A DNA stretch of 64,000 nucleotides. Source: Squalus acanthias (Eukaryota). This document shows, in pieces, positions 27,357-54,523 of this stretch. The DNA is taken from positions 744,001 to 808,000 of the forward strand of contig JASTWF010000088.1 of NCBI GenBank assembly GCA_030390025.1, read 5' to 3'. Each line of letters opens with the position of its first letter. Within the stretch, counting starts at the first letter, position 1. The notes below the pieces were generated by a model. That model did not search any database and was not told the DNA's origin. It saw only the letters and a list, made by a program, of their open reading frames with translations. Both the position numbers and the translations under genes were made by a program.

Positions 27357-30055
27357 AGAGAGAGAGAAAGAAAGTGAGGTAGAAGGACAGAGGGAGAGAG
27401 GGGGTGAGGGGGAGTAAGAGAGAGAGAGTTAGGGGAGAGAGAGAGAGAAAGGAGGGAGAGAGCAAGGAGGAAGGCGGGAGAGAGAGGGAAAGGGAGAGGG
27501 TGAGGATAAGGGAGAGACGAGGGAGCGGGAGAGTGGGAAATGGCGAGGGAGAGGGAGAGTGAGTGGGTGAAGGTGAGCGAATGGGAGAAGGAGAGAGAGA
27601 AAGACCGAGGGAGAGTGTGAGGGAGAGGGCGATCTAGTGGGAGAGGGAGGGCAAGGGAGAGGGAGAGAGAGCGAGAAAGGGAAAAGGTGAGGGAGGGGGA
27701 GAGAGAGAGAGAGAGGGAGATGGAAATGGTGAGGGAGATAGAGGGAGAGGGACAGAGAGAGAGGGTGAGGGAAAGAGGGAGGAATAGAGGGAGAGGGATA
27801 GAGAGAGAGGGTGAGGGAAAGAGGGAGAGGGTGAGGGAAAGGGAGAGGAATAGAGAGAGAGAGAGAACAAAAGAGGAGAGGGAGTGGGAGAGGGCAAGGG
27901 AGAGAGAGAGGGTGAGGGAGATGGAGAGGCCAAGAGTGAGTGTGAGAGCGAGGAAGAGGAAGAGTGTGACGGAGAGAGAGGGGGAAATTGAGGGAGTGGG
28001 AGAGAGAGGGAGTGGGAATGAGAGAGAGTGGGAACGAGAATAAGAGCGAGTGAGGGAGATGGCAAAGGAGAGAGAGAGAGAGTGAGCGAGAGAGTGAGTG
28101 GGAGGGAGAGAGGGAGAAAGGGAAATGGCGTGGGAGTTGGTGTGGGTGAGGAATAGTTAGAGGATGATGGAAAGGGTGTGAGACAGAGAGGGAGTGGGTG
28201 AGGGTGAGAGAAAGAGGAAAAGAGAGAGAGGGAGAGTGAGGGTGAGTGAGTGGGAGGAAGAGAGGAACACAGGGAGAGAGCGAGGGAAAGGGCGAGGGAG
28301 AGAGAGTAAGGGGGAGGGAGTGAGTGAGAGAAAGAGGGAGCGAGAGGGAAAGAGCGTGGGAGTGGGAGTGGGTGAGAGAGGGAGTGGGAGAGAGGGGGGC
28401 GAGAGGGAGGGAGGGAGAGGGAGGTGGAGTGGGAGAGGGCAAGGGAGAGGGAGCGGGAGAGGCCGAGAGTGAGGGTGAGAGCGCGGAAGAGGAAGAGTGC
28501 GTGGGAGAGTGATCGGGGGAAGGTGAGGGAGTGAGAGAGAGAGGGCAAGGGAGAGGGAGTGGGAAAGGGAATGGGAGAGGGAGAGTGAGTGAGGGAGAGG
28601 ATGAGAGAGTGTGAGGGAGAGGGCAAGGGATACAGAGAGTGAGGGAGAGGGTGCGAGAGAGGGAACGAGGGAAAGGGAGAGGGAGTGTGAGGGAGAGAGA
28701 GAGAGGGAAAGGGCAAGGGAGATGAAGTGGGTGAGGGAGAGACTGAGAGGACGAGGGAGCGAGTGAGTGGGAGGAAGAGAGGAACACGAAGAGGGAGAGA
28801 GGGAAAGGGCGGGGGAGAGAAAATGGGTGAGGGAGGGGGAGAGAGAGGGAAAGGGAGAGGGATAGGAAAGAACGAGGGAGAGAGCGAGGGAGAGTGTGAA
28901 TGTGAGGGAGGGAGAGGGAGAGCGAAAGGGCGATGGAGGGGGAGAGAGAGAGAGAGGGAGGGCGAGGGAGAAGGTGACGGAGTGGGAGAGAGCGCGGGAT
29001 ATGGAGAGGGAAAGGGACAGTGAGAGAGAGGACGAGAGAGAGGGAGAGTAAGTGGGAGGGAGATGGAGTGGGTGAGGGACAGAGTGAGAGTGAGGGCGAG
29101 GGAGAGAGTGAGGGAAAGGAAAATCGCAAGGGAGAGGGCGAGCCTGAGTAAGGGCGAGGGAGTGGGTGAGGAAGAAGGTGTGGATGAGGGAGAGGGAGAG
29201 TGAGAGGCCAAGAGCGAGGGTGAGGGACAGAGCAAGGAAGAGGAAGAATGTGAGGAAGAGGGAGGGCGAGAGAGAGGGCGAGGGAAAGGGGGAAAGAGAG
29301 AGGGAGTGAGGGAGACAGAGGGAGTGGGTGAGGGCGAGGGAGAGTGTGAGAGAGGGAGAGAGTGGGCGAGGGAGTGGGAAAGGGAATGAGAGACAGTGAG
29401 GGATAAGGGCGAGGGAAGGGAAGAGAGTGAGGGAGTGGGTGAGGGAGTGAGAAAGTGAGAGAGAGGGAGAGGGCAAGGGTAAGTGAGGAAGAGGGTGAAA
29501 GAGAGCGAGAGGGAGAGAGTGTGGATGATGGTGAGAGACAGTCAGTGGAAGGGAGAGGGAGAGAGAGCAAGGGAGAGGGAGTGCTTGAGGGAGAGAGAGA
29601 GGGAAGGGGCAAGTGAGATGGAGTGGGTGAGGGAGAGGGAAAGGGCGAGGGAGAGAGAGGGATAAGGTGAAAGCAGGGGGGGGTGAGTGGGGGGAGAGGG
29701 AAAGAGTTTGGGAGTGGGTGAGGGAGAAGGAGAGAGAGTACGAGGGAGAGGGAGTTGGAGAGGGAGAGGTGAGAGTGAGGGAGAGCATTAGAGAGAGAGA
29801 GAGAGCACAAAGGAAAGTGAGGAAGAGGGTAAGAGAGAGTGGGAGGAAGGGAGAGAGCGTGAGGGAGAGGGGGAGAGCGCGAGTGAGGGAGATGGTGAGA
29901 GAGTCAGTGGCAGGGAGAGAGGGAGAGATAGAGTGAGGGAGATGGTGAGTCAGTGGCAGGGAGAGGAAGAGGGGAGGGAGAGAGCGGGAGAGGAAGAGGG
30001 GAAGGGAGAGAGAGAGAGTCAGTGCGAGGGAGAGAGGGAAAGGGAGAGGGAGGAG
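27357..30055 (+). repeat. GA-rich polypurine low-complexity tract (~2.7 kb)
   Basis: Almost entirely G/A with GAGGGAGAG and GAGTGGG motifs; no fixed period. Confidence 0.95.
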
Positions 30056-30156
30056 GCTTGACACGACCTTTATGCGCTGCCTTAGTTTAGCCCCCAAGGG
30101 TGACTGGGACAGCAGATGGAATGTGGGGCAGAGCAGACGGTCGTTCGCAGGGTTTA

Positions 30157-30304
30157 CCCAGTAACTTCTGATGCTGCGGTGTGTCTAATTTCTATTGGTT
30201 GGTTGGACTGTGTGAGGTGATACTGTGCCCTTTGCTGTTTGCCCTGAAACTGAAAGCTCACACAATCCAAGCTCAGGGACTTTCCATCACACGCCTTCCC
30301 AGAA
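30157..30304 (+). promoter_or_regulatory. Candidate distal immune enhancer: X1/X2, Y, ISRE, NF-kB and GAS motifs
   Basis: CCCAGTAACTTCTG(ATGC) 30157-30170; 20-nt spacer; TCTATTGG 30191-30198; GAAACTGAAAGC 30246-30257; GGGACTTTCC 30276-30285; TTCCCAGAA 30296-30304. Confidence 0.7.
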
Positions 30305-30399
30305 ATAGCTCTCCGAAATAATCAACAATCTGGCAGCCCTAGAGACAGCTCAGAACTAACTCGGATCGTGTGACAATAGCAACATGTCAAACACCACTG

Positions 30400-30906
30400 C
30401 ACACACACACACACACACTCTCACACACTCACTCGCACAAACACATTCTCACACACACACAAAAACACACTCTTATACACACACACTCACACACACACAA
30501 AAACACACTCTTATACACACACACTCACACACACACAAAAACACACTTATACACACACACACAAACACATTCTCACACACACACAAACACACACTCATAC
30601 ATACTCATACACTCGCACACACAAACACATTCTCACTCACTCACACAAACACACACTTATACACACTCTCACACAAACACTCACATACACACTCACTCGC
30701 ACACACAAACACACTCACACACTCGCTCGTACAAACACACTCACACACACACAAACACACACTTATACACACTCACTCGCACACACAATCACACACTCAC
30801 TCGCACAAACACACACACAAACGCACACTCTTATACACACACACTCACTCACATACACTCGCACACACAAACACACTCTCACACACTCACTCACACAAAC
30901 ACACAC
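30400..30906 (+). repeat. CA-rich degenerate microsatellite
   Basis: (CA)n with ACTC/AAAC interruptions; resumes at about 31351-31530 after the SINE. Confidence 0.95.
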
Positions 30907-30910
30907 AGTG

Positions 30911-31350
30911 TCAGCTATGGCTCAGTTGGTAGCACACTGGCTCCGAGTCGGAAGGTTGTGTGTTCAAGTCCCACCCAAGGGACTTGAGCCCATTAAAGCT
31001 AGGCTGACACTCCAGTGCTGTGCTGAGGGAGTGCTGCACTGTCGGAGGTGCCGTCTTTCGGATGAGACGTTAAACCTCAGGTGGATGTAAAAGATCCCAT
31101 GGCGCTATGGAGCAGGGGAATTATCCCGGTGTCCTCACCAATATTTATCCCTCAACCAACATTACAAAAACAGATTATCTGGTCATTATTACATTGCTGT
31201 TTGTGGGACTTTGCTGTGTGCAAATTGGCTGCCGTGTTTCCCACATTACAACTGTGACTCCACTTCAAAAGTACTTCTTGGCTGTAAAGAGCTTTGAGAT
31301 GTCCGGTGGTCGTGAAAGGCGCTATATAAATGCAAGTCTTTCTTTCTTTC
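30911..31350 (+). mobile_element. tRNA-headed SINE of the Deu-domain (SacSINE1/AmnSINE1-like) group, near full length
   Basis: A box TGGCTCAGTTGG 30918-30929, B box GTTCAAGTCC 30962-30971, central CAGATTATCTGGTCATTAT...GCAAATTGGCTGCCG, LINE-like tail AAAGGCGCTATATAAATGCAAG(TCTT)n. A second copy lies at 39980. Family name is from recognition only. Confidence 0.85.
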
Positions 31351-31534
31351 ATACACTCACACAGACACATATTCTCACACATTCACTCATATACTCACAT
31401 AAACACACTCACATACAAGTACATGCTCTTACTCACTTACTTGCACATAAACACACTGTCACATATTCACATACAGACTCAGATACACACACACATTCAA
31501 GAAGACACACTCGCACACAATCTCACATACATAT

Positions 31535-32178
31535 CAGAGTAAAGGCCCAGGCCCACAGTATCAGAGTAAAGGCTCAGGCCCTCAGTCCCACAGTATGACC
31601 GTAAACGTCCAGGCTCTCAGTCCCACAGTATCAGAGTAAAGGCCCAGACCCTCAGTCCCACAGTATGACAGTAAAGGCCCAGGCTCTCAGTCCCACAGTA
31701 TCAGAGTAAAGGCCCAGACCCTCAGTCCCACAGTATGACAGTAAAGGTCCAGGCTCTCAGTCCCACAGTATCAGAGTAAAGGCCCAGACCCTCAGTCCCA
31801 CAGTATGACAGTAAAGGCCCAGGCCCACAGTATGACAGTAAAGGCCCAGGCCCACAGTATGACAGTAAAGGCCCAGACCCTCACCCACAGTATGACAGTA
31901 AAGACTCAGGCCCTCAGTCCCACAGTATGACAGTAAAGGCCCAGACCCTCAGTCCCACAGTATGACAGTAAAGGCCCAGACCCTCAGTCCCACAGTATGG
32001 CAGTAAAGGCCCAGGCCCACAGTATGACAGTAAAGGCCCAGACCCTCAGGCCCACAGTATGACAGTAAAGGCCCAGACCCTCAGTCGCACAGTATCAGAG
32101 TAAAGACTCAGGCCCTCAGTATGACAGTAAAGGCCCAGGCTCTCAGTCCCACAGTATGACAGTAAAGGCCCAGGCCTT
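31535..32178 (+). repeat. Minisatellite, 30/37-bp unit CACAGTATGACAGTAAAGGCCCAG(ACCCTCAGTCC)
   Basis: About 18 tandem units of two lengths. Confidence 0.93.
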
Positions 32179-32185
32179 GAGCCAT

Positions 32186-32535
32186 ACTGTTGGAGGAGGA
32201 TGGTGTGGTCAACCGTGTCAAAGTCTGCAGACAGGTCAAGAAAGTGAGGAGGGACAGTTTACCACGGTCACAGTCACATGGATTGTCATTTGTGACTTTG
32301 ATAAGGGCCGTTTCAGTGCTGTGTCACGGGCGGAAACCTGATTGGAGGGGTTCAAACATGGAGTTGCGGAAAAGATGGGCACGGATTCGGAAGACGACAA
32401 CACGTTCAAGGACTTGAGAGAGGAAAGGGAGGTTGGAGATGGGGCGGTAGTTTGCAAGGACAGAGGGGTCAAGGGTGGGTTTTTTGAGGAAGAGGGTTGA
32501 TGACGGCAGATTTGACAGGGAGGGGGACAGGAGCT
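32186..32535 (-). mobile_element. L2/CR1-group LINE reverse-transcriptase fragment
   Basis: Minus frame reads LKKPTLDPSVLANYRPISNLPFLSQVLERVV...LQSGFRP, then DHTILL; degenerate and truncated. Confidence 0.85.
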
Positions 32536-32933
32536 GAGGAGAGGTCTCAGTATCTGGTGACGAGCTGGTCCCGTGGTTGAACCTGCCGGTAATTCCCAGA
32601 GACAGCAAGGCTCCTCCCTCCCCAGCAGTACACAGGTCACTCAATGCTGCTGTGGAAAGTCCCAGTGATTCACCGTAGCAGATAACTGAGCAAGAAACAA
32701 ATAAAAAGAACAGAAATATCACTGAGGCAGGGGAGGAGTGGAGCGGGCGGTTAAACACGAGATCAACTGAAAACATCAGGATGGCAGCAAACGTGACACA
32801 GACACTGTCCTGTTTGCAGTATATCGTCCCGATCCCAGACTCGGCAGATAACCTGTACACAACATGGTCACAAACTTTACAATCTGAGCTCTGCCTCTCA
32901 CTTTGACAGACGTTATCAACAGGAGCAAACTCA

Positions 32934-33315
32934 CAGACTGTAGTTAGACTGTAAACAGTTTCACCCTGTGATCTCACTGCCAGACTGTAGTTAGACTGTA
33001 AACAGTTTCACCCTGTGAGCTCACTGCCAGACTGTAGTTAGACTGTAAACAGTTTCACCCTGTGAGCTCACTGCCAGACTGTAGTTAGACTGTAAACAGT
33101 TTCACCCTGTGAGCTCACTGCCAGATTGTAGTTGGACTGTAAACAGTTTCACCCTGTGAGCTCACTGCCAGACTGTAGTTATACTGTAAACAGTTTCACC
33201 CTGTGAGCTCACTGCCAGACTGTAGTTAGACTGTACACAGTTTCACCCTGTGAGCTCACTGCCAGACTGTAGTTAGACTGTACACAGTTTCACCCTGTGA
33301 GCTCACTGCCAGACT
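32934..33315 (+). repeat. 47-bp minisatellite CAGACTGTAGTTAGACTGTAAACAGTTTCACCCTGTGAGCTCACTGC (first segment)
   Basis: 8 tandem units; continues at 35305-35412, about 35492-35586 and about 36138-36184 between insertions. Confidence 0.95.
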
Positions 33316-35304
33316 ACATAGATACATAGAACAGTACAGCACAGTACAGGCCCTTCGGCGCTCGATGTTGTGCCGAGCATTGTCCGAGACCAAGATCAAG
33401 CTATCACACTCCCTATCACTCTGGTGTGCTCCATGTGCTTATCCAATAACCGCTTGAAAGTTCCTAAAGTGTCCGACTCCACTATCACAGCAGGCAGTCC
33501 ATTCCACACCCCAACCATTCTCTGAGTAAAGAATCTACCTCGGACATCCCTTCTATATCTCCCCCCATGCACCTTATAGTTATGCCCCCTTGTAACAGCT
33601 GCCTCTACCCGAGGAAATAGTCTCTGAACATCCACTCTATCTATCCCCCTCATCATCTTATAAACCTCTATTAAGTTGCCTCTCATCCTCCTCCGCTCTA
33701 AAGAGAAAAGCCCCAACTCCCTCAGCCTTTCCTCATAAGACCTCCCCCCCAAACCAGGCAGCATCCTGGTAAATCTCCTTTGCACTCTTTCCAATGCTTC
33801 CACGTCCTTCCTATAGTGAGGTGACCAGAACTGCACACAATATTCCAAATGTGGTCTCACCAAGGTCCTGTACAGTTGCAGCATAACCTCACGGTTCTTA
33901 AACTCAAACCCTCTGTTAATAAACGCCAACACACCATAGGCCTTCTTTACTGCTCTATCCACTTGAGTGGCAACCTTCAGAGATCTGTGGATATGAACCC
34001 CCAGATCCCTCTGCTCCTCCACGTTCCTCAGAACCCTGCCGTTGACCCTGTAATCCTTATTCAAATTTGCCCTACCAAAATGAATCACCTCGCACTTATC
34101 AGGGTTAAATTCCATCTGCCATTTTTCGGCCCAGCTCTGCATCCTATCAATGTCTCTTTGCAGCCTACAACTGCCCTCCACCTCATCCACTACTCCACCA
34201 ATCTTGGTGTCATCAGCAAATTTACTGATCCACCCTTCAGTCCCCTCCTCCAAGTCATTGATAAAAATCACAAACAGCAGAGGACCCAGCACCGACCCCT
34301 GTGGCACACCGCTGGTAACTGGTCTCCAGTCCGAAAATGTTCCATCCACCACCACCCTCTGCCTTCTATGAGATAGCCAGTTACTTATCCAATCGGCCAA
34401 ATTTCCCTCTATCCCACAACTCCTTACTTTCTTCATGAGACGACCATGGGGAACCTTATCAAACGCCTTACTAAAATCCATGTATACGACATCAACTGCT
34501 CTACCTTCATCTACACACTTAGTTACCTCCTCAAAGAATTCAATCAAATTTGTTAGGCAAGACTTACCCTTCACGAATCCGTGTTGACTATCCCTGATTA
34601 AGTTGCCCCTTTCCAAATGGTCATAAATCCTATCCCTCAGGACCTTTTCCATTATCTTACCAACCACCGAAGTAAGACTAACCGGCCTATAATTACCAGG
34701 GTCATTCCTATTTCCTTTCTTGAAGAGAGGAACAACATTCGCCACTCTCCAGTCCTCTGGCACCATCCCCGTGGACAGTGAGGACCCAAAGATCAAAGCC
34801 AGAGGCTCTGCAATCTCCTCCCTTGCCTCCCAAAGAATCCTAGGATATATCCCATCTGGCCCAGGGGACTTATCGACCCTCAGGTTTCAAAATTGCTGAA
34901 ACATCTTCCCTCAGAACATCTACCACCTCCAGCCTATCCACCTTTATCACACTCTCATCCTCAAGAACATGGCCCCTCTCCTCGGTGAACACTGACGAAA
35001 AGTATTCATTCATCACCTCTCCTATCTCTTCTGACTCCATGCACAAGTTCCCACTACTGTCCTTGACCGGCCCTACCCTCACCCTGGTCATTCTTTTATT
35101 TCTCACATAAGAGTAAAAAGCCTTGGGGTTTTTCTTGATCCGACCCGCCAAGGACTTCTCATGCCCCCTCCTAGCTCTCCTAAGCTCTTTTTTTAGCTCA
35201 TTCCTTGCTACCTTGTACCCCTCAATCGACCCAACTGAACCTTGTTTTCTCATCCTTACATACGCTTCCTTTTTCCTCTTGACTAGACATTCAACCTCTT
35301 TTGT
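33316..35304 (-). mobile_element. 5'-truncated CR1 LINE with ORF2 RT domain (466-aa open stretch 33396-34796; frameshift near 34870)
   Basis: NYRPVSLTS, QHGF, DFSKAFD, GVPQGSVLGP, FADD, RPHLEYC motifs; 3' tail of TCTATGT(A) repeats at 33316-33330. Confidence 0.95.
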
Positions 35305-35412
35305 GTAGTTAGACTGTACGCAGTTTCACCCTGTGAGCTCACTGCCAGACTGTAGTTAGACTGTACACAGTTTCACCCTGTGATCTCACTCCCAGACTGT
35401 AGTTATACTGTA

Positions 35413-35491
35413 ATAGAATCAGAAAATGCTGGAAATACTCAGCAGGCCAGGCAGATTTCAAATTTCCAGCATCCGTAGTATTTTGCTTTTG
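35413..35491. repeat. Short foldback insertion, probably a Penelope-type terminal-repeat remnant
   Basis: ATGCTGGAAAT...ATTTCCAGCAT inverted repeat interrupting the 47-bp minisatellite. Confidence 0.55.
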
Positions 35492-35586
35492 TGTAGTTAG
35501 ACTGTAAACTGTTTCACCCTGTCATCTCACTCCCAGATTGTAGTTATACCGTACACAGTTTAACCTGTGATCTCACTCCCAGACTA

Positions 35587-36137
35587 TTTTATTACTCGTT
35601 CCTGGGAGGTGAGCGACGCTGGCAAGGCCAGCATTTATGGCCCATCACTAGCCATCACCTTGACAAGGTGGTGGTGAGCCACCTTCTTGAACCGCTGCAA
35701 CCCATGTGGTGAAGGTACTCCCACAGTGCTGTTAGGGCAGGAGTTCCAGGATTTTAACCCAGCGACGATGAAGGAATGGCGATATATTTCCAAGTCAGGA
35801 TGGTGTGTGACTTGGAGGGGAACTTGGAGGTGGTGGTGTTCCCATGCGCCTTCAGTCCTTGTCCTTCCAGATGGTAGAGGTTGCGGGTTTGGGAGGTGCT
35901 GTTAGAAAAGCTTTGCCAAGTTGCTGCTGTGTATATTTTAGATGGTACACACTGCAGCCAGGGTGCGCCGGTGGTGGAGGGAATGAATGTTTAAGGTGGT
36001 GGATGGTGTGCCAATCAAGCGGACTGCTTTGTCCAGGATGGTGCCGCGTTTCTTGAGTGTTGTTGGAGCTGCACTCATCCAGGCAAGTGGCGAGTATTCC
36101 ATCACACTCCTTACTTGTGCCTTGTAGATGGTGAAAA
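35587..36137 (-). mobile_element. 3' fragment of a non-LTR retrotransposon (ORF2 C-terminus and 3' UTR)
   Basis: Minus frame reads YKAQVRSVMEYSPLAWMSAAPTTLKK...IHSLHHRR, typical of a LINE RT C-terminus; contains stops; interrupts the 47-bp array. Confidence 0.75.
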
Positions 36138-36184
36138 GACTGTAATTTTACTGTACAGTGTTTAACCTGTGATCTCACTCCCAG

Positions 36185-37003
36185 TCATGTGTGATCAATG
36201 ACACTGATCATCACTGCCCAGGGTCCCCCAGTAATGTGATCAATGATACTGATCGTCACTGCCCAGGGTCTCCCAGTAATGTGACCAATGACACTGATCA
36301 TCACTGCCCAGGGTCTCCCAGTAATGTGATCAATGACACTGATCGTCACTGCCCAGGGTCTCCCAGTAATGTGATCAATGACACTGATCGTCACTGCCCA
36401 GGGTCCCCCAGTAATGTGATCAATGATACTGATCGTCACTGCCCAGGGTCCCCCAGTAATGTGACCAATGACACTGATCGTCACTGCCCAGGGTCTCCCA
36501 GTAATGTGACCAATGACACTGATCGTCACTGCCCAGAGTCTCCCAGTAATGTGATCAATGACACTGATCGTCACTGCCCAGGGTCCCCTAGTAATGTGAT
36601 CAATGACACTGATCGTCACTGCCCAGGGTCTCCCAGTAATGTGACCAATGACACTGATCATCACTGCCCAGGGTCTCCCAGTAATGTGATCAATGACACT
36701 GATCGTCACTGCCCAGGGTCTCCCAGTAATATGACCAATGACATTGATCGTCACTGCCCAGGGTCTCCCAGTAATGTGATCAATGACACTGATCGTCACT
36801 GCCCAGGGTCTCCCAGTAATGTGATCAATGACACTGATCGTCACTGCCCAGGGTCTCCCAGTAATGTGACCAATGACACTGATCATCACTGCCCAGGGTC
36901 TCCCAGTAATGTGATCAATGACACTGATCGTCACTGCCCAGGGTCTCCCAGTAATGTGACCAATGACACTGATCGTCACTGCCCAGGGTCTCCCAGTAAT
37001 GTG
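36185..37003 (+). repeat. 45-bp minisatellite GTGATCAATGACACTGATCGTCACTGCCCAGGGTCTCCCAGTAAT
   Basis: About 18 near-identical units. Confidence 0.97.
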
Positions 37004-37049
37004 TGATCGAACGTCTGTGCTTATGTGTGCTGTCACAAACGCTGATTTC

Positions 37050-37790
37050 AAAATTAGAAAAGCAGAGATTGGGAAATGTTGGTATTCACAGGGACCTGGG
37101 TGTCCTTGTACACAAATCACTGAAAGCTAACTTGCAGGTACAGGAAGCAATTAGGAAAGCAAATGGTATGTTGGCCTTTATTACAAGAGGATTTGAGTAG
37201 AAGAGTAAAGACGTCTTACTGCAATTATATAGGGCCCTGGTGAGACCGTACCTGGAGTATTGTGTAGTTTTGATCTCCTTACCTGAGGAAGGATATACTT
37301 GCCATAGAGGGAGTGCAACGAAGGTTCACCAGACTGGTTCCTGGGAGGGGGAATTGTCCTGCCAGGAGAGATTGACAAGACTAGGCCTATATTCTCTAAA
37401 GTTTAGAAGAATGAGAGGTGATCTCATTGAAACATATAAAATACTTACAGGGCTTGACAGGGTAGATACAGGGAGGATGTTTCCCCTGGCTGGGGAGTCT
37501 AGAACCAGGGGTCACAGTCTCAGAATAAGGGGTCGGCCATATAGGACTGAGAGGAGGAGAAATTTCTTCACTCAGAGGGTGGTGAATCTTTGGAATTCTC
37601 TACCCCAGAGGGCTGTGGAGGCTCAGTCGTTGAGTATATTCAAGACAGAGATCGATAGATTTTTGAATATTACGGGATGTGGGGATAGTGCAGGAAAGTG
37701 GAGTTGAGGTAGAGGATCAGCCATGATCTTATTGAATGGCGGAGCAGGCTCGAAGGGCCAAATGGCCGACTCCTGCTCCTGTTCATTATC
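37050..37790 (+). mobile_element. Degenerate CR1 LINE 3' fragment
   Basis: RDLGVLVHKSLK...RPYLEYC...RRMRGDLIETYKIL...FFTQRVVNLWNSLP with a stop and frameshifts; 3' UTR GGAGCAGGCTCGAAGGGCC...CTCCTGCTCCT. Confidence 0.9.
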
Positions 37791-37799
37791 TGCCCTAAA

Positions 37800-37908
37800 A
37801 TTGCCTTATGTGGCTCAGTGTTATTTTGTTTGATAACACTTCTGTGAAGCGCCTTAGGACGTTTTACTACATTAAAGGCGCTGTATCAATTCAATTTGTT
37901 GTTGTTGT
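37800..37908 (+). mobile_element. L2/SINE-type 3' tail
   Basis: CTGTGAAGCGCCTTAGGACG...AAAGGCGCTGTAT...(TTG)n resembles the tail of the SINE at 31280-31350. Confidence 0.65.
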
Positions 37909-38014
37909 AATGTTTCTGCCTGTTGGACTTTAACCCATGTGTTTGGAACTTGGCCCTGGGTGTGGTTCTGACGATTAGCTGCTGTCCAACTCGGCCCAGG
38001 CTTTTAATCTTATT

Positions 38015-38188
38015 TGAGAAGTCGCACAACACCAGGTTATAGTCCAACAGTTTTATTTGAAATCACCTGACGAAGGAGCAGCCGCTCCGAAAGCTTGTGA
38101 TTTCAAATAAAACTGTTGGACTATAACCTGGTGTTGTGTGACTTCTCACTTTTGTCCACCCCAGTCCAACACCGGCATCTCCGCATCA
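38015..38188 (+). mobile_element. 174-bp Penelope-type foldback insertion with 12-bp target-site duplication
   Basis: 52-bp inverted arms 38015-38066 and 38097-38148 (one mismatch); TTTAATCTTATT at both 38003-38014 and 38189-38200. Confidence 0.85.
38060..38103 (+). ncRNA. Minimal type I hammerhead ribozyme motif
   Basis: Helix I AAATCAC/GTGATTT; core CTGACGA 38067-38073; one extra A; helix II GGAGC-AGCC-GCTCC; GAAA 38089-38092; palindromic AGCT helix III; CUU triplet. Confidence 0.7.
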
Positions 38189-38559
38189 TTTAATCTTATT
38201 GGAAGCATCTCCAAATTGGCAGCTGCCTGGCCCCACCCATTGCAGTCTTCAGAGCTCCTCCTTACCCAAAGGTCAGAATAAAATAGCAGGAAATAACTGG
38301 GTGGACATATTTCTTTCCAAGATTGTTTAGCTGCGGCTTGTTTTATATACAAATTGACCCCCGAACACTCCTAAAAATTTCTCAACAAGTAGAGGGGTCG
38401 TCAATCCTTCAATGAGGGAAGCTGGAGGCTTCACTCTGTCCTTTCGAGGCTACCTTTAACTTGGACATACAAATCTGGGATTATCAACACTAATGCAGAC
38501 ACTGAATGGGCCGGTTTCTTGTTTCCAGGATGAAACAGGGTTCATAAATGAGAAAACAA

Positions 38560-39562
38560 CAAGATAAGGAAGAATATTTTTATTCACACCAATGAGCATA
38601 CAAAGAACAGTAGAGAATTGTGCATGCATTACAGGAAATTGGAAGCTAAATCATCAGCGCTGTACCCTCTAAATTCAACAACTCCCAGTTGCAAAAATAC
38701 ACAATAATCAGCATTGAGTGTCTCATGTAGACGATGATTTTTTAGTAAAAGCTAATGTATGTGGTGCTAATCTCCATATTAGGCCAAGTCCAGGTATGAG
38801 GCCTTAACAGCTCAGAACACCGAACTAGGCCGAGATTTCCCCCACACACTGCAGGGTTTCCATGGGTAAATCAGCAGGGTGGAATGGAAGCCAAGTGGGA
38901 AAAGTGCAGGTGGATTCTGACCCGAGGTGTTCCAAACGGAACAGAAGCCCAATATCCAGACCCCGCCCCCCCCGCTGTGAGGTTTGAGCTGGCTGGTACA
39001 GGCGGAAGCTGTTGTGACCTCTGCTGTGTGCGGTGCACATCGAGCAGTGCGTAAGATGTGCATATACCGCTCACATTTCAGGAAAACAGAAGCTTCAAAA
39101 CTAAACCAAACACCGACATATAATATTCAAGTGATTGAGTCGAGTATCCCTCCCCCCTCAGGGATTGAGGTCTCCAGCTCTCAGAGAATGAGGTGACATT
39201 TGAACCTCTCAGCCGAGAGTTTGACTGGGCCTTTCTCGTTCTCGTTTCCTGCTTTAGTTTTAATTTGCTGGGTAACCCGGTCCTTGTGGAGGCAAATTTC
39301 AAATTAAACGAATCAGCGCTTCACAATTTCACTGGACAAGATCTAAAAACATCTCAGAAATGAGCAAGACGTCAAGGACGTAAATTACAGAGATCACAGT
39401 ATCATAAGCAAACCTACTTCCCATCACACATGTAGTTTAAGGGGTCAGATCAATTTATTTATTCATTTTAAAAGTTTACATTTGAAGATAGGTTAAACCA
39501 AAGCTGATTTGCTCCCCAGAAGTGGTCGATTCATTCAATCATCTCACTGCGGCATCCAGTGG
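38560..39562 (-). other. b2m: b2m exon 4 (non-coding 3' UTR; 3' end uncertain)
   Basis: Strong acceptor ctttcttttctctttgttttgcag| at 39563/39562 after a 96-nt intron; AATAAA at 39454-39463 (two overlapping) and 38579-38584. Confidence 0.65.
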
Positions 39563-39673
39563 CTGCAAAACAAAGAGAAAAGAAAGGCGTGGAATTTGAA
39601 CGCCGTGCTGGAACACGTCCCTTCAGTAACCAGGTCTGAGCTGTGAGACACTGCTTACCTCTGCCATGACAGG

Positions 39674-39684
39674 CTAGAAGCTGT
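39674..39684 (-). CDS. b2m: Beta-2-microglobulin exon 3, coding part (D-S-F-stop); whole exon 39659-39684
   Basis: ttctttctgctttcacccacag|AC AGC TTC TAG...GAG|gtaagc; phase 1 matches exon 2; a small stop-containing third exon is the standard b2m layout. Confidence 0.85.
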
Positions 39685-39979
39685 CTGTGGGTGAAAGCAG
39701 AAAGAAACATTAGTCTGTGACCAGATGAGGTGAGGAAACCCCCAGTGGTGGAGCGCTTTGGGAACCATAGGTGCAAAGTCACCTGTTCCTCCCAAGCACG
39801 CTCCACTCACCACACGTCATGTCCCAAGTTACAAATACTGTATCCCAAAATTTTATTTTCTGAAAGAAACCTGCCTGGGTTAATGTTAGGTAAATAGGTC
39901 AGCACCTTCAGAAACACGGTACAGAGATTCTATCCAGAGTGCTAACGTGTTACTGTATCACAGCACATTATTTTAGGCG

Positions 39980-40318
39980 TTAGCCGTGGCTCAGTGGGTG
40001 GCATTCTTGCCTCGGAGTCAGATGGCTGTGGATTCCAAACCCCACTCCAGAGACTTGAGCACAAAACCGAGGCTGGCACTCAAGTGCAGTGCTGAGGGAG
40101 TGCTGCTTTGTCGGAGGTGCCGTCTTTGGGGTGAGACATTAGTCAGAGGCCCCATCAGCCCTTTCAGGTGGATGTAAAAGATCCCAAAGCATTATTTTGA
40201 AGGCGGCCATGGGTGTTCTCTCCAGTGTCCTGGCCAATATTTATCCCTCAACCAACACCCAAAACAGATTACCTGGTCACCATCACATTACTGTTTGTGG
40301 GATCTTGCTGTGCACAAA
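39980..40318 (+). mobile_element. 3'-truncated copy of the Deu-domain tRNA SINE in b2m intron 2
   Basis: Alignable with 30911-31225 (GTGGCTCAGTGGG..., GCTGAGGGAGTGCTGC, TCAGGTGGATGTAAAAGATCCCA, AATATTTATCCCTCAACCAACA). Confidence 0.85.
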
Positions 40319-40648
40319 GCTCAACGGTTTAGTGAAACCACTGAGCCACAGGAACTTGGTCAGTGTAACCTGTTCATGGGCACATTACAGCAAATAAACA
40401 TACTCTCTATACTAGGGTATAAGTACACATTTAATTTTCCAAGGGGTTCATATACAGAATAATGGATACCTGGGAGTGAGTTACAGGCTGGAATCTAACC
40501 GAGGGTTGATGTCAGATGTTCAGTTGAGGAGGAGTCTGTGTTTGCCAGATTATGTGTGTTGGATGGAGTTTGCAACTGATGAGCTGGTACCACAGAGGGA
40601 GAGCGAGAGCTGTGTGCGTTGATGCACATTAACAGACAGATTACTCAC

Positions 40649-40921
40649 CCAGCTGAATCTCTTTCATATCGCCGTTGTGTTGCATCTTGCAGGTATACTT
40701 CACTCCACTTTGGGGGATGAAGTCCACAAACCTGGTGAGCTTGAAGCTCCAGTCTGACTCGAAGGAGAGGTCAGACTGGTTGGCATTGGGGATGCTGTTT
40801 CCATTCTGCAACAGCTCCAGCTTGATGTTGGGTGGGCTGAAATCTTTGGCATGGCACAGCAGAACATTAGATTCGCCTTCCTTTGCGGGTTTGTAGGTAT
40901 ACACCTGCACCTGTGGAGCAG
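40649..40921 (-). CDS. b2m: Beta-2-microglobulin exon 2 (Ig C1 domain)
   Basis: (T)APQVQVYTYKPAKEGESNVLLCHAKDFSPPNIKLELLQNG...QSDLSFESDWSFKLTRFVDFIPQSGVKYTCKMQHNG; b2m hallmarks P-x-V-Q-V-Y, two Cys, SDLSF-x-x-DWSF; tctctag| acceptor and G|gtgagt donor; 273 nt, phase 1/1. Confidence 0.97.
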
Positions 40922-41014
40922 CTAGAGACACACGACAGGGACAGAGTGAGTGAAATTAACAGCAACTGCATTCCAATCCATCACCAACTGGGATCTGCCA
41001 GACACTGGGGCTGA

Positions 41015-41180
41015 GAGATATCCATACACTGACTGGGGTGTCTCAGTCCCACTCTCTGGGAGATATCTGTACACTGACTGGGGTCTCTCAGTCCCAGTCT
41101 CTGGGAGTTATCCGTACACTGACTGGGGTCTCTCAGACCTACTCTCTGGGAGATATCCATGCACTGACTGGGGATCTCTT
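41015..41180 (+). repeat. 45-bp minisatellite in b2m intron 1 (about 3.5 units)
   Basis: GAGATATCCATACACTGACTGGGGTCTCTCAGTCCCACTCTCTGG repeated. Confidence 0.9.
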
Positions 41181-41799
41181 CACCCCAGTGAGAGAGACAA
41201 CAAACACTTAAACAAAAATATAGATAAAGAACGGAAACAAAAGTAGAAGAGAGAAAGATTGGTGAAAAAGCAGAGAAGTGTGTAAGTGGAGTAACAGTGG
41301 CAAGATGTACAGGATACTCGAAACAAAATAAACAGTGTGAGAAGAAAGACGAAAGTAAAAGGCTGAACTGATGTCTGGAGCAAGCTGAAGGGGAGTTTGA
41401 AGATGATGAAATGTTCTGGTGAATGAAGTGTGCAGTTCTCATGGGAGACCTCTGGTCATTGTGTGGCAACAGCACAAACCCAACCCCTTGGCAATGGCTT
41501 TCCTGTTCACTGTTTGTACCAAACTCGCACATCAACTTCACAAACACACTTACACCATTGCTAGGCTCAGCAGGCAGAGGAATCTGTCCTGGGGATGGGG
41601 GCTTCATAAATTCAACAGAACATTATCTGGGGAGAAGCAATAAAGACCCTCTAAGCATGTCCAAACATCTGCCCTCCACAGTGCTCCCCCTTCAGAAAGT
41701 AATGGGTTCCTCCACCATTCCTGTTAACTATAAACGTGGTGTCTGTCATTCACTGCTCCCTACACTGTGTCAAGGCTCAGTCGACTGGCACTTTGTCAA

Positions 41800-42736
41800 G
41801 GAATGAGACCAAAGGGAGAGCTCTTTCAGGGAGAGGGCACAGTGGCAATGGGAATGAGACCAAAGGGAGAGCTCTTTCACGGAAAGGGCACAGTGGCGAT
41901 GGGGAATGGGACCAAGGGGAGAGCTCTTTCACGGAGAGGGCACAGTGGCAATGGGGAATGGGACCAAGGGGAGAGCACTTTCACGGAGAGGGCACAGTGG
42001 CAATGGGGAATGGGACCAAGGGGAGAGCTCTTTCACGGAGAGGGCACAGTGGCGATTGGGAATGGGATTAAGGGGAGCGCTCTTTCACGGAGAGGGCACA
42101 GTGGCGATGGGGAATGGGACCAAGGGGAGAGCTCTTTCACGGAGAGGGCATAGTGGCGATTGGGAATGGGACCAAGGGGAGAGCTCTTTCACGGAGAGGG
42201 CATAGTGGCGATTGGGAATGGGACCAAGGGGAGAGCTCTTTCACGGAGAGGGCATAGTGGCGATTGGGAATGGGACCAAGGGGAGAGCTCTTTCACGGCG
42301 AGGGCACAGTGGCGATTTGGAATGGGACCAAGGGGAGAGCTCTTTCACGGAGAGGGCACAGTGGCGATGGGGAATGGGATTAAGGGGAGCGCTCTTTCAC
42401 GGAGAGGGCACAGTGGCGATGGGGAATGGGACCAAGGGGAGAGCTCTTTCACGGAGAGGGCATAGTGGCGATTGGGAATGGGACCAAGGGGAGAGCTCTT
42501 TCACGGAGAGGGCATAGTGGCGATTGGGAATGGGACCAAGGGGAGAGCTCTTTCACGGAGAGGGCATAGTGGCGATTGGGAATGGGACCAAGGGGAGAGC
42601 TCTTTCACGGAGAGGGCACAGTGGCGATGGGGAATGGGATTAAGGGGAGCGCTCTTTCTGGGAGAGAGGGCACAGTGGCGATGGGGAATGGGACCAAGGG
42701 GAGAGCTCTTTCAGGGAGAGCGGGCACAGTGGCGAT
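41800..42736 (+). repeat. 52-bp minisatellite in b2m intron 1 (about 18 units)
   Basis: GGGAATGGGACCAAGGGGAGAGCTCTTTCACGGAGAGGGCACAGTGGCGATG tandem. Confidence 0.96.
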
Positions 42737-42841
42737 GGTCCGAATGGTCCTATCTGGGTTTTAAATTATTTTCTAAACTCTGCTCAGGAGGCGGCGCACT
42801 CACCTCGGGACCCGGAACACCCAAACACTGAGGTTACTTAC

Positions 42842-42890
42842 TCGCCAGGCAGAGGGTCAGGACTGAGGCCAGGACCACGATCTTCAGCAT
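42842..42890 (-). CDS. b2m: Beta-2-microglobulin exon 1 (signal peptide MLKIVVLASVLTLCLA)
   Basis: Kozak-like GCCATCATG; 16 hydrophobic codons plus 1 nt, then gtaagt; phase 1 fits exon 2. Spliced CDS is 49+273+11 = 333 nt, 110 aa. Confidence 0.9.
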
Positions 42891-42987
42891 GATGGCTGTA
42901 GGCTCACTCCGGGTTCTCAGGCTCGGTTCGGGTTCTCGGGTTCGGTTTCAGGCTCCGCTCCAGTCGCTTCTCGCTCACTCTCTGCTC

Positions 42988-43215
42988 TTCACTTCCTGGG
43001 TTCCCGATTAAACTGCAACAAACAAGCGCCCGAGCACCAATCAGAAAAAGACTGGCCGCGCTCCGCCCCGCCCACTCACCCAATTCCAGCCAATCGCAAT
43101 ATTCATCACCACCGAGTCATCGGTCTCCGGGTAAAAGACCGCTGAACAGTTTGCGAATCGGGAGAGTGAGAGAGGGCGGGTCGGCGAGGGCAGCAGGAGC
43201 GGCGAAAGCGAAAGC
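42988..43215 (-). promoter_or_regulatory. b2m: b2m proximal promoter (ISRE, X1/X2-Y module, extra CCAAT boxes, GC boxes)
   Basis: CpG-rich; GAAAGCGAAAGC 43204-43215 (+); minus strand CCCGGAGACCGATG 43131-43118 overlapping TGACTC, 20-nt spacer, GCGATTGG 43097-43090; CTGATTGG 43044-43037; GGGCGGGGCGG 43073-43063; GGAAGTGAA near 42996-42988. Confidence 0.85.
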
Positions 43216-43252
43216 CAGGGACAAGTAATCGCTGGACTCACATATTTACAGC

Positions 43253-44706
43253 CATGTACAGAGATAGGGAAGGGGTCCACAGAGAAAGGGAACATGTACA
43301 CAGAGATAGGGAACGTGTCCATAGAGATAGGGAACATGTACTCAGAGATAGGGAACATGTATACAGAGAGGGAACATGTACACAGAGATAGGGAACATGT
43401 ACACAGAGATAGGGAACATGTACTCGGAGATAGGGAACATGTATACAGAGAGGGAACATGTACACAGAGATAGGGAACATGTACTCAGAGATAGGGAACA
43501 TGTACTCGGAGATAGGGAACATGTATACAGAGAGGGAACATGTACACAGAGATAGAGAACATGTACTCAGAGATCGGGAACATGTATAGAGAGAGGGAAC
43601 ATGTACACAGAGATAGGGAACATGCACACAGAGTTAGAGAACATGCACACAGAGATAGGAAACATGTACACCGAGAGAGGGAACATGTACTCAAAGATAG
43701 GGAACATATACACACAGAGAGAGGGAACATGTACACAGAGATAGGGAACATATATACAGAGATGGAACATGTACACAGAGATAGGGAACATGTACACAGA
43801 GATAGGGAACATGCACACAGAGATAGAGAACATGTACACAGAGATAGGAAACATGGACACAGAGATAGGGAACATGCACACAGAGATAGAGAACATGTAC
43901 ACAGAGATAGGAAACATGGACACAGAGATAGGGAACATGTACACAGAGAGAGGGAACATGTACACAAAAGAAGTAACATGTACACAGAGATAGGGAACAT
44001 GCACACAGATAGAGAACATGTACACAGAGATGGGAAACATGTACACAGTGATAGAGTACATGTACTCAAAGATAGGGAACATATACACAGAGATAGGGAA
44101 CATGTACACAGAGAGGGAACATGTACACATAGATAGGGAACATGTACACAGAGATAGAGTACATGTACTCAAAGATAGGGAACATATATACAGAGAGAGG
44201 GAACATGTACATAGAGATAGGGAACATACACAGAGAGCGGGAACATGTATAGAGAGAGGGAACATCTACACAGAGATAGAGTACATGTACACAGAGAGAG
44301 GGAGCATGTACACAGAGATAGAGAACATGTGCACAGAGATAGGGAACATGTACACATAGAGAGGAAACATGTACACATAGATAGGGAATATGTACACAGA
44401 GATAGTAAACATTTACACAGAGATAGGGTACATGTACACAGAGAGAAGGAGCATGTACACAGAGATAGGGAACATGTACACAGAGAGAGGAAACATGTAC
44501 ACAGAGATAGGGAACATGTACATAGAGATAGGGTACATGTACACAGAGATAGGGAACATGTACACAGAGATAGGGTACATATACACAGAGAGGGATCATA
44601 CACATAGAGTGGGAACAAATACAGAGAGAGGGAACATGCACACATAGATAGGGTACAAAAACACACAAATAGGGAACATTTACACAGAGATAGGGAACAT
44701 GTACAA
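43253..44706 (+). repeat. ~21-bp minisatellite GGGAACATGTACACAGAGATA
   Basis: Roughly 70 degenerate 19-21-bp units directly upstream of the b2m promoter. Confidence 0.95.
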
Positions 44707-44709
44707 AGA

Positions 44710-47700
44710 GTGGGATCGGGTGGCGTGAGTTGGGGATTGTGAGTTGGATCAGGTGGTGTGAGTTGGATCGGAGGGTGTGAGCGGGATCGGGTGGTGTGTG
44801 TGGGATCGGGTGGTGTGAGATGGATCGGGTGGTGTGAGTTGGATCGGGTGGTGTGAGTTGGATCGGGCGGTGTGAGCGGGATCGGGTGGTGTGAGCGGGA
44901 TCGGGTGGTGTGTGTGGGATCGGGTGGTGTGAGTTGGTTCGGGTGCTGTGAGTTGGATCGGGTGGTGTGAGTGGGATCGGGTGGTGTGAGTGGGATCGGG
45001 TGGTGTGAGTTGGATCGGGTGGTGTGAGTGGGATCGGGTGGTGTGTGTTGGATCGGGTGGTGTGAGTTGGATCAGGTGGTGTGAGTGGGATCGGGTGGTG
45101 TGAGAGCGATCGGGTGGTGTGAGTGGGATCGGGTGGTGTGAGTTGGATCGGGTGGTGTGAGTGGGATCGGGTGGTGTGAGTTGGATCGGGTGGTGTGAGT
45201 TGGATCGGGTGGTGTGAGTGGGATCGGGTGGTGTGAGTGGGATCGGGTGGTGTGAGCTGGATCGGGTGGTGTGAGTTGGATCGGGTGGTGTGTGCGGGAT
45301 CGGGTGGTGTGAGTGGGATCGGGTGGTGTGAGTGGGATCGGGTGGTGTGAGTGGGATCGGGTGGTGTGAGCTGGATCGGGTGGTGTGAGCTGGATCGGGT
45401 GGTGTGAGTTGGATCGGGTGGTGTGAGTGGGATCGGGTGGTGTGAGTGGGATCGGGTGGTGTGAGTTGGATCGGGTGGTGTGAGCGGGATCGGGTGGTGT
45501 GAGTTGGATCGGGTGGTGTGAGTTGGATCGGGTGGTGTGAGCAGGATCGGGCGGTGTGAGCGGGATCGGGCGGTGTGAGTGGGATCGGGCGGTGTGAGTT
45601 GGATCGGGCGGTGTGAGTTGGATCGGGCGGTGTGAGTTGGATCGGGTGGTGTGAGTTGGATCGGGTGGTGTGAGTGGGATCGGGTGGTGTGAGTTGGATC
45701 GGGTGGTGTGAGTTGGATCGGGTGGTCTGAGTTGGATCGGGTGGTGTGAGCGGGATCGGGTGGTGTGAGCTGGATCGGGTGGTGTGAGTGGGATCGGGTG
45801 GTGTGAGTTGGATCGGGTGGTGTGAGTTGGATCGGGTGGTGTGAGTGGGATCGGGTGGTGTGAGTGGGATCGGGTGGTGTGAACGGGATCGGGTGGTGTG
45901 AGCGGGATCGGGTGGTGTGAGCGGGATCGGGTGGTGTGAGTTGGATCGGGTGGTGTGAGTGGGATCGGGTGGTGTGAGAGGGATCGGGTGGTGTGAGCTG
46001 GATCGGGTGGTGTGAGTTGGATCGGGTGGTGTGAGGTGGATCGGGTGGTGTGAGTTGGATCGGGTGGTGTGAGTTGGAGCGGGTGGTGTGAGTTGGATCG
46101 GGTGGTGTGTGTTGGATCGGGTGGTGTGAGTTGGATCGGGTGGTGTGAGCTGGATCGGGTGGTGTGAGCTGGATCGGGTGGTGTGAGCGGGATCGGGTGG
46201 TGTGAGCGGGATCGGGTGCTGTGAGCGGGATCGGGTGCTGTGCGTTGGATCGGGTGGTGTGAGTTAAATCGGGTGGTGTGTGTTGGATCGGGTGGTGTGA
46301 GTTGGATCGGGTGGTGTGAGTTGGATCGGGTGGTGTGAGTTGGATCGGGTGGTGTGAGTTGGATCGGGTGGTGTTAGTTGGATCGGGTGGTGTGAGTGGG
46401 ATCGGGTGGTGTGAGTGGGATCGGGTGGTGTGAGTGGGATCGGGTGGTGTGAGTTGGATCGGGTGGTGTGAGTTGGATCGGGTGGTGTGAGTTGGATCGG
46501 GTGGTGTGAGTTGGATCGGGTGGTGTGAGTTGCATCGGGTGGTGTGAGTGGGATCGGGTGGTGTGAGTTGGATCGGGTGGTGTGAGTTGGATCGGGTGGT
46601 GTGAGCTGGATCGGGTGGTGTGAGTTGGATCGGGTGGTGTGAGTTGGATCGGGTGGTGTGAGCGGGATCGGGTGGTGTGAGTTGGATCGGGTGGTGTGAG
46701 TTGGATCGGGTGGTGTGAGTGGGATCGGGTGGGGTGAGTGGGATCGGGTGGTGTGAGTTGGATCGGGTGGTGTGAGTTGGATCGGGTGGTGTGAGTTGGA
46801 TCGGGTGGTGTGAGTTGGATCGGGTGGTGTGAGTGCGATCGGGTGGTTTGAGTTGGATCGGGTGGTGTGAGTTGGATCGGGTGGTGTGAGTTGGATCGGG
46901 TGGTGTGAGTGGGATCGGGTGGTGTGAGTTGGATCGGGTGGTGTGAGTGGGATCGGGTGGTGTGAGTTGGATCGGGTGGTGTGAGTTGGATCGGGTGGTG
47001 TGAGTTGGATCGGGTGATGTGAGTTGGATCGGGGTGGTGGTGAGCGGGATCGGGTGGTGTGAGTTGGATCGTGTGGTGTGAGTGGGATCGGGTGGTGTGA
47101 GTTGGATCGGGTGGTGTGAGCGGGATCGGGTGGTGTGAGTTGGATCGGGTGGTGTGAGTTGGATCGGGGTGAGTGTGAGTGGCGGATCGGGTGTGTGAGT
47201 GGGATCGGGTGGTGTGAGTTGGATCGGGTGGTGTGAGCTGGATCGGGTGGTGTGAGCGGGATCGGGTGGTGTGAGTGGGATCGGGTGGTGTGAGTGGGAT
47301 CGGTGGTGTGACGGGGATCGGGTGGTGTGAGCGGGATCGGGTGGTGTGAGCGGGATCGGGTGGTGTGAGCGGGATCGGGTGGTGTGAGCGGGATCGGGTG
47401 GTGTGAGCTGGATCGGTTGGTGTGAGCGTGATCGGGTGGTGTGAGCGGGATCGGGTGGTGTGAGCGGGATCGGGTGGTGTGAGTTGGATCGGGTGGTGTG
47501 AGTTGGATCGGGTGGTGTGAGTTGCATCGGGTGGTGTGAGTGGGATCGGGTGGTGTGAGTTGGATCGGGTGGTGTGAGTTGGATCGGGTGGTGTGAGCTG
47601 GATCGGGTGGTGTGAGTTGGATCGGGTGGTGTGAGTTGGATCGGGTGGTGTGAGCGGGATCGGGTGGTGTGAGTTGGATCGGGTGGTGTGAGTTGGATCG

Positions 47701-53700: not shown

Positions 53701-54023
53701 TTGGATCGGGTGGTGTGAGTTGGATCGGGTGGTGTGAGTGGGATCGGGTGGTGTGTGTTGGATCGGGTGGTGTGAGTCTGGATCGGGTGGTGTGAGTTGG
53801 ATCGGGTGGTGTGAGAGGGATCGGGTGGTGTGAGTGGATCGGGTGGTGTGAGTTGGATCGGGTGGTGTGAGCTGGATCGGGGTGGTGTGAGCGGGATCGG
53901 GTGGTGTGAGTTGGATCGGGTGGTGTGAGTGGGATCGGGTGGTGTGAGTGGATCGGGTGGTGTGAGGGGATCGGGTGGTGTGAGCTTGGATCGGGTGGTG
54001 TGAGTTGGATCGGGTGGTGTGAG
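44710..54023 (+). repeat. 19-bp satellite GGGTGGTGTGAG(TT/TG/CG/CT)GGATC
   Basis: About 490 tandem units running up to the assembly gap. Confidence 0.98.
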
Positions 54024-54523
54024 NNNNNNNNNNNNNNNNNNNNNNNNNNNNNNNNNNNNNNNNNNNNNNNNNNNNNNNNNNNNNNNNNNNNNNNNNNNNN
54101 NNNNNNNNNNNNNNNNNNNNNNNNNNNNNNNNNNNNNNNNNNNNNNNNNNNNNNNNNNNNNNNNNNNNNNNNNNNNNNNNNNNNNNNNNNNNNNNNNNNN
54201 NNNNNNNNNNNNNNNNNNNNNNNNNNNNNNNNNNNNNNNNNNNNNNNNNNNNNNNNNNNNNNNNNNNNNNNNNNNNNNNNNNNNNNNNNNNNNNNNNNNN
54301 NNNNNNNNNNNNNNNNNNNNNNNNNNNNNNNNNNNNNNNNNNNNNNNNNNNNNNNNNNNNNNNNNNNNNNNNNNNNNNNNNNNNNNNNNNNNNNNNNNNN
54401 NNNNNNNNNNNNNNNNNNNNNNNNNNNNNNNNNNNNNNNNNNNNNNNNNNNNNNNNNNNNNNNNNNNNNNNNNNNNNNNNNNNNNNNNNNNNNNNNNNNN
54501 NNNNNNNNNNNNNNNNNNNNNNN
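54024..54523. other. Assembly gap (500 N)
   Basis: Round-number N run between two different satellites; true distance and adjacency unknown. Confidence 0.99.

Follow-up and report, generated by a model that had tools for sequence, protein, structure and literature searches.

Introduction

Beyond the 3' end of the beta-2-microglobulin gene (b2m) of Squalus acanthias lies a short insertion whose two sides can pair into a long hairpin, closed by a loop that reads like a hammerhead ribozyme. What kind of element left this insertion behind, how did the ribozyme come to lie at the exact centre of a hairpin, and would it be able to cut where it now stands? We addressed these questions in a window of 64 kb, the whole stretch of DNA analysed (64,000 nt), starting from an earlier note made from the letters of this stretch. 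What is attributed below to a cited paper refers to excerpts of that paper.

Penelope-like elements (PLEs) have been reported from all vertebrate lineages surveyed (PMC4350176), and minimal hammerheads are found in large numbers in some vertebrate genomes, about 9,000 in the frog and about 4,000 in the coelacanth (PMC4209133). The in vivo role of PLE hammerheads is described as unclear (PMC8557442), and in vitro the hammerhead of the lizard PLE was dispensable (PMC11167929). A single locus carries little weight here, since minimal hammerheads occur in thousands elsewhere and the layout of an inverted repeat plus a tail has already been described. Short hammerhead-bearing Penelope repeats are abundant in shark assemblies. 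The value of this locus is that of a compact and clean specimen, in which the target-site duplication (TSD), both putative RT starts and the inversion junction can be read within 198 bp.

Anatomy of the insertion

With both copies of its TSD, the insertion is complete in 198 bp (Table 1). Its length of 174 bp, as first reported, is made up of 52 + 30 + 52 + 40: two inverted arms of 52 nt each around a 30-nt spacer, followed by a tail. The arms, which the earlier note had already described as closing a 30-nt loop, are 98% complementary and differ at a single pair of sites, a G at 38024 facing a T at 38139, which makes a G·U pair in the RNA of the + strand and a mismatch in that of the - strand. 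For the + strand of all 198 nt the predicted folding energy is -101.8 kcal/mol (z = -17.2), and none of 200 shuffles was equally stable.

The 12-bp TSD is exact, in line with the first description, and the 12-mer has no further occurrence in the 64-kb window; the chance of a 12-bp match within 100 positions is about 1e-5. Eleven of its 12 positions are A/T, and ATT stands at or near the 3' end of both strands.

One part was absent from the first description, namely the tail of 40 nt that lies outside the hairpin, on one side only, and is rich in C (18 C, 8 A, 9 T, 5 G). It is the best diagnostic of the type of insertion. The boundaries at 38148 and 38188 both finish in the trinucleotide UCA, and a perfect 9-bp stem joins 38114-38122 to 38163-38171, a length that 16 of 2,000 shuffles reach. 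This stem is a candidate protein-binding or RT-start stem-loop. As support for a PLE reading, the UCA ends and the stem were recognised post hoc and deserve modest weight.

Table 1. Features of the insertion and of the adjoining b2m gene, in positions of the window
Feature	Position	Strand	Remark
TSD, left copy	38003..38014	.	exact 12-bp duplication; AT-rich, adjoins inverted arm
Inverted partial pLTR (left arm)	38015..38066	-	reverse complement of 38097-38148; innermost few bases double as helix I 5' strand
Minimal type I hammerhead core	38067..38096	+	motif numbering, descriptor match; without Rfam match
Hammerhead C3-A9	38067-38073	+	
Hammerhead extra base A	38074	+	between 9 and 10.1
Hammerhead helix II	38075-38079/38084-38088	+	5 bp, opens with G10.1-C11.1
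Hammerhead G12-A15.1	38089-38092	+	
Hammerhead palindrome (helix III)	38092-38095	+	4 nt
Hammerhead U17	38096	+	predicted cut 38096/38097
Direct pLTR body downstream of cut site (right arm)	38097..38148	+	end 38148 is the putative internal RT start
9-bp stem joining pLTR body and tail	38114..38171	+	encloses internal boundary 38148; shuffle test
One-sided C-rich tail	38149..38188	+	end 38188 is the putative outer RT start
TSD, right copy	38189..38200	.	exact 12-bp duplication
b2m, complete, four exons	38579..42890	-	context only; PDB match, exon limits by eye from GT-AG
b2m ATG	42890	-	
b2m exons	about 42890-42842, 40921-40649, 39684-39659, 39562 onward	-	
Candidate b2m poly(A) signals AATAAA	39454-39459, 38579-38584	-	875 nt apart

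The hammerhead motif

The loop had been read as a minimal type I hammerhead with a palindromic helix III, and this reading holds base by base: the conserved core (C3 U4 G5 A6 G8 A9 / G12 A13 A14 A15.1 / U16.1 H17) is fully present, and the hammerhead numbering puts the cut where it had been predicted, after 38096. Minimal hammerheads of PLEs are marked by an extra base between 9 and 10.1, a G10.1-C11.1 pair, a palindromic 15.2-16.2 and an AU-rich 3' flank (PMC4209133). The shark motif has the extra base, the G10.1-C11.1 pair and a helix II of at least 4 bp, with pair probabilities of 0.997-1.0 in the energy model; the palindromic 15.2-16.2 is present as well, and no stable helix III forms in the monomer. 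The likeness to metazoan PLE motifs extends over CUGANGA plus the extra base, G10.1-C11.1, GAAA, the 2-nt palindrome, a U, H17 and the AU-rich 3' flank (PMC4209133). In the same alignment, a GC palindrome with U17 is also found in the painted turtle and Philodina motifs, and the innermost three pairs of helix I in those of lamprey and sea urchin; the 56 aligned motifs, as excerpted, include no shark sequence (PMC4209133).

Could such a likeness be accidental? A minimal-hammerhead descriptor, written after the consensus in PMC4209133, matched at 38067 only in the whole 64-kb window, both strands, and gave 0 matches when the surrounding 4,007 bp were shuffled 4,000 times with dinucleotides preserved (32 Mb, both strands). 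A check with Infernal and hammerhead models, as the earlier note had suggested, was run against Rfam and came back empty-handed: there were 0 matches at gathering score across the window, and at 37900-38300 no hammerhead family stood among the three matches up to E=10. By score, the motif at 38067-38096 falls outside the Rfam hammerhead families. The canonical models may miss it because they expect the helix III that is wanting in the minimal variant. One of the matches, to mir-39 (E=6e-4), was rejected as a microRNA, its 30.7 bits standing against a cut-off of 62; it mirrors the hairpin only.

Identity of the insertion

When the hammerhead strand is taken as sense, the order of the element is TSD, inverted partial pLTR, hammerhead, direct pLTR, tail, TSD. 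Several traits of insertions of endonuclease-bearing (EN+) PLEs are found here, namely an inverted, 5'-truncated pLTR copy beside a direct copy, a tail of 30-40 bp on one side (40 nt in this case), a short TSD (12 bp) at an AT-rich site, and a hammerhead within the pLTR, upstream of the tail. PLE tails are 30-40 bp long and often present on one side only (PMC8557442), and inverted pLTRs and 3' extensions are handled as routine curation features (PMC8969392). The 40-nt tail thus strengthens a Penelope-like origin. We consider it likely that an endonuclease-bearing PLE inserted here head-to-head and with severe 5' truncation, leaving nothing but terminal-repeat sequence. The Penelope-like origin, the inverted partial terminal repeat and the TSD proposed at the outset are all supported by this anatomy, tail included. 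There is no ORF within the 174 bp, and it is the anatomy that suggests membership of the PLE family.

Inverted arms, a TSD, a short non-coding body and the absence of an Rfam hammerhead would also suit the relic of a DNA transposon, such as a MITE, or a palindrome formed by chance, in either case with an accidental likeness to a hammerhead. In a MITE the inverted repeats form the two termini and adjoin the TSD. The right arm, however, stops 40 nt before the right TSD, so the inverted repeats are not terminal and the MITE candidate was rejected; the shuffles reported above speak against an accidental hammerhead. We regard these origins as extremely improbable.

All parts of the insert are of kinds already described. 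A typical Penelope has a direct pLTR and an adjacent shorter inverted pLTR, with an optional 31-bp tail and a 9-bp TSD (Pen2a_Av, PMC3846280), and other copies in Adineta vaga have TSDs of 8-10 bp, solo-pLTR-bounded inserts and palindromes at the inverted junction (PMC3846280). The shark insert resembles Pen2a_Av and the solo-pLTR inserts in its inverted, shortened pLTR beside a direct pLTR, its one-sided tail, its short TSD, the palindrome at its inverted junction and its AT-rich target. It differs from them in that it has no ORF or second direct pLTR, in the length of its TSD (12 versus 8-10) and of its tail (40 versus 31), and in a junction that falls exactly on the hammerhead, a word that does not occur in this 2013 paper (PMC3846280). 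Poseidon PAc of Anolis carolinensis also has two RT starts bracketing the tail, a stem-loop near the start, an AT-rich/ATT target and a hammerhead upstream of the tail (PMC11167929). PAc, however, is autonomous and has been tested in vitro, whereas the insert is an end product only, with no ORF for a call between the Poseidon and Neptune clades. In the literature on PLE mechanism, taken mostly from outside subscription papers and repeat databases, we found no account of a shark family with the sequence at 38097-38188 and none of an inverted arm that ends at a hammerhead cut site.

The earlier note had called the insert a mobile hairpin, and the 174 bp could indeed be thought of as one copy of a non-autonomous family, SINE-like or retrozyme-like, that moves as a unit. 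A clean TSD and an intact hammerhead core fit this idea. Moreover, pLTR sequences suffice for mobilisation in trans (PMC3846280), and pLTR-derived retrozyme monomers occur in vertebrates, including the one chondrichthyan genome sampled (bioRxiv 10.64898/2026.07.22.740005). Like the insert, non-LTR retrozymes are short, non-coding and pLTR-derived, with a type I hammerhead, but they are defined as tandem units with at least two consecutive hammerheads (bioRxiv 10.64898/2026.07.22.740005), whereas the insert is not a tandem repeat: there is no array at the site, and the window holds one motif, set in a head-to-head arrangement. The retrozyme candidate was rejected on these grounds. Mobility of the whole hairpin also sits badly with a single copy in the window, no promoter source was identified for such a unit, and any transcript of it would be held in hairpin form, with the 9-bp stem near the RT start hidden. 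We therefore judge it improbable that the hairpin moved as a unit, and the left arm is better read as a product of this very insertion.

A search for relatives returned little. No second copy of the insert lies elsewhere in the 64-kb window, and neither an autonomous PLE partner nor an empty site was seen within the window and the prokaryotic, plasmid and phage collections. Two exact-pattern scans of prokaryotic genomes, and searches of plasmids and phages, all gave 0 matches, as one would expect of a repeat from an animal. Among the 35 ORFs of at least 90 aa at 30050-43300, none stood out as a PLE-type RT/GIY-YIG ORF, and Pfam, run on four of the 35, returned RVT_1 alone, in two of them and in one of these below cut-off. 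As a protein proxy for searches we used a 40-residue open frame that runs across the element and is not thought to be a real protein. Compared with longer proteins, it gave two candidates and 0 matches, together with 0 Pfam families and no usable Atlas match. Against 1.84 billion representatives it found three long proteins, apparently through low complexity, two of them at 37-38% identity over 8-10 stretches and one without a passing stretch; they weigh neither for nor against a PLE origin. Separately, 16 nt at 37920-37935, 80 nt to the left of the element, are 94% identical to 38113-38128 (BLAST E=0.42); this likeness is probably due to chance and possibly a relic of an older copy.

Origin of the hairpin

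How, then, would a PLE have built a hairpin around its own ribozyme? The lizard PLE protein, studied in vitro, works on both strands of AT-rich DNA, which it cuts, preferably at ATT, and then extends; its RT starts at two internal sites whose spacing equals the tail (PMC11167929). We envision that at the shark locus the two strands of the AT-rich site were nicked, 12 nt from each other, by a PLE RT/GIY-YIG protein acting in trans, and that cDNA was then primed from both 3' ends, at start sites separated by 40 nt on the element RNA. The bottom-strand cDNA would start after 38188 and the top-strand cDNA after 38148, which would leave the tail on one side. Finally, the two short cDNAs would be joined via a few bases of native helix I, bringing the hammerhead to the centre of the hairpin. 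Such a joining of two cDNAs resembles the twin priming of L1.

The hairpin is thus most likely a by-product of integration, in which native helix I served to join the two cDNA ends. Probably no more than the innermost arm bases are native to helix I, by analogy with the short helices of related motifs, and the complementarity of these native bases would explain why the junction falls on the ribozyme. Nevertheless, four routes lead to identical letters: annealing through helix I, fold-back self-priming, deletion of the centre of a longer palindrome, and run-off on an RNA cut after 38096. Fold-back self-priming was proposed for Adineta vaga copies (PMC3846280), and hammerhead pairs on opposite strands, 100-700 bp apart, have been reported (PMC4209133).

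The run-off route holds that the top-strand cDNA ran off a hammerhead-cut RNA, in which case the place where the inverted arm stops, on its inner side, would be a trace of cleavage in vivo. The inverted copy does span 38148 back to exactly 38097, the first base past the predicted cut, and the anole PLE protein, a predicted dimer, activates its own hammerhead (PMC11167929). Yet the complementarity of helix I starts at 38097 too, so microhomology joining, fold-back and deletion would all give the same letters with no cleavage. In the anole, moreover, hammerhead mutants left insertion unchanged, uncut RNA was the main template, and no RNA-seq reads ended at the cut site (PMC11167929). The arm that ends at the cut site is, besides, known from one copy (n = 1). 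Run-off on cut RNA is in our opinion unlikely, and we are just as doubtful that the inverted arm was copied from self-cleaved RNA and the direct arm from uncut RNA. Were this true, a single insertion would use two RNA molecules, one cut and one uncut, and hairpin inserts would form a fossil record of PLE hammerhead cleavage in vivo during integration. In fact, if inverted arms stop at the cut site in many copies, the role of the PLE hammerhead could be tested from genome sequence alone.

Predicted activity of the ribozyme

The arms had been said to supply helix I, which is correct as far as geometry goes. Published PLE hammerheads, however, have a helix I of about 2-6 bp (PMC4209133), which the inverted copy has lengthened here to 52 bp, and a helix of this length should hinder rather than help the formation of dimers. 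In the energy model, the A15.1-U16.1 pair has a probability of 0.000 in the monomer. Nearest-neighbour energies, which ignore Mg2+, tertiary contacts and chaperones, put the active dimer, in which helices I and III are both intermolecular, about 2.5 kcal/mol higher than a pair of monomers regardless of arm length, and 9 kcal/mol higher than the best alternative dimer. Opening the 52-bp helix I would cost 90.6 kcal/mol as compared to 0.9-3.9 for 3-5 bp, although branch migration could lower this barrier. With such a cost, a co-transcriptionally folded hairpin should be trapped and dimer formation hindered.

Thus, the ribozyme is probably silent in place, as the models give no helix III in the monomer, no partner lies within the 64 kb, the arms would act as a trap, and the motif is antisense to b2m. 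In the anole, the PLE hammerhead is assisted by protein (PMC11167929). An absence of cleavage would not refute a PLE origin, since only one of nine Xenopus dimers was cleaved (bioRxiv 10.64898/2026.07.22.740005) and the S. mansoni motif failed to cleave as a single unit and did so little as multimers (PMC4209133).

Age and relation to b2m

The insertion had been called recent. At the epaulette shark mutation rate of 7e-10 per site per generation (PMC10587355), one difference in 64 paired sites (52 of the arm and 12 of the TSD) translates into an age of 11 million generations (95% range, 0.3-62 million), bearing in mind that the difference could be an RT error and that the arms may be homogenised. 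A range of this width gives no support to the word recent.

The insert had also been placed about 390 bp beyond the distal AATAAA of b2m, and we measured 391 nt from the end of the insert to this candidate poly(A) signal (38579-38584). The note had added that read-through from either strand would form dsRNA next to an interferon-responsive gene. The insert could have been co-opted as a regulator of b2m, acting on read-through transcripts through dsRNA, editing or termination. Besides its position, three features speak for such a role: RNA read through the insert in the b2m sense is predicted to form a long hairpin (z = -12.7), an AATAAA on the b2m strand comes with the left arm (38052-38057), and an ATTAAA is found in both TSD copies. 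On the other hand, the insert lies beyond both candidate poly(A) signals of b2m, and the ribozyme is on the + strand whereas b2m is on the minus strand. A role in b2m or interferon biology is unsupported. Since the surroundings are dense with other repeats, proximity to b2m needs no explanation. Co-option is therefore very unlikely to our mind, and the insert is most likely neutral.

The neighbourhood

The identification of b2m comes from protein structures: its exon at about 40649-40921 scores 160 bits to PDB 9ch4, 8gm8 and 6luo, which we take to be nurse shark entries, as compared to 96.5 for the next, and these scores suggest a cartilaginous fish. The gene sits on an island of about 13 kb between satellites, with 52-bp and 23/45-bp minisatellites in its intron 1. 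Strand-skewed satellite makes up most of the window (1-27276, 44708-54023 and 54524-64000), in arrays of 35/36-bp (about 765 copies), 19-bp (490 copies) and 73-bp units (131 copies), with a gap of 500 N at 54024-54523.

The neighbourhood of the insert consists of LINE, SINE and satellite DNA. On the minus strand, 33396-34886 holds an uninterrupted RT frame of 496 codons (Pfam RVT_1 E=1.7e-37), presumably that of a CR1-like LINE, with a further frame beside it at 34870-35325; the LINE has inserted into a region of 47-bp minisatellite units. At 37130-37790 (plus) lies the 3' end of another LINE copy, which resembles the C-terminus of the first frame. It is followed at 37790-37910 (plus) by a SINE-like 3' tail, immediately to the left of the element; the limits of both were set by eye. 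Two similar SINE-like copies were likewise recognised by eye at 30905-31350 and 39984-40320 (plus), the second inside intron 2 of b2m, and we assume that they belong to a tRNA-headed SINE-like class. At 32324-33007 (minus) there is a weak RT fragment, below cut-off (RVT_1 E=0.002), possibly the relic of an L2-type LINE.

Upstream of b2m, a GC-rich stretch at 43000-43240 (plus) looks by eye like a promoter, with CCAAT boxes. It includes a possible non-coding first exon, also found by eye, with a GT donor near 43225, from which a divergently transcribed gene may start.
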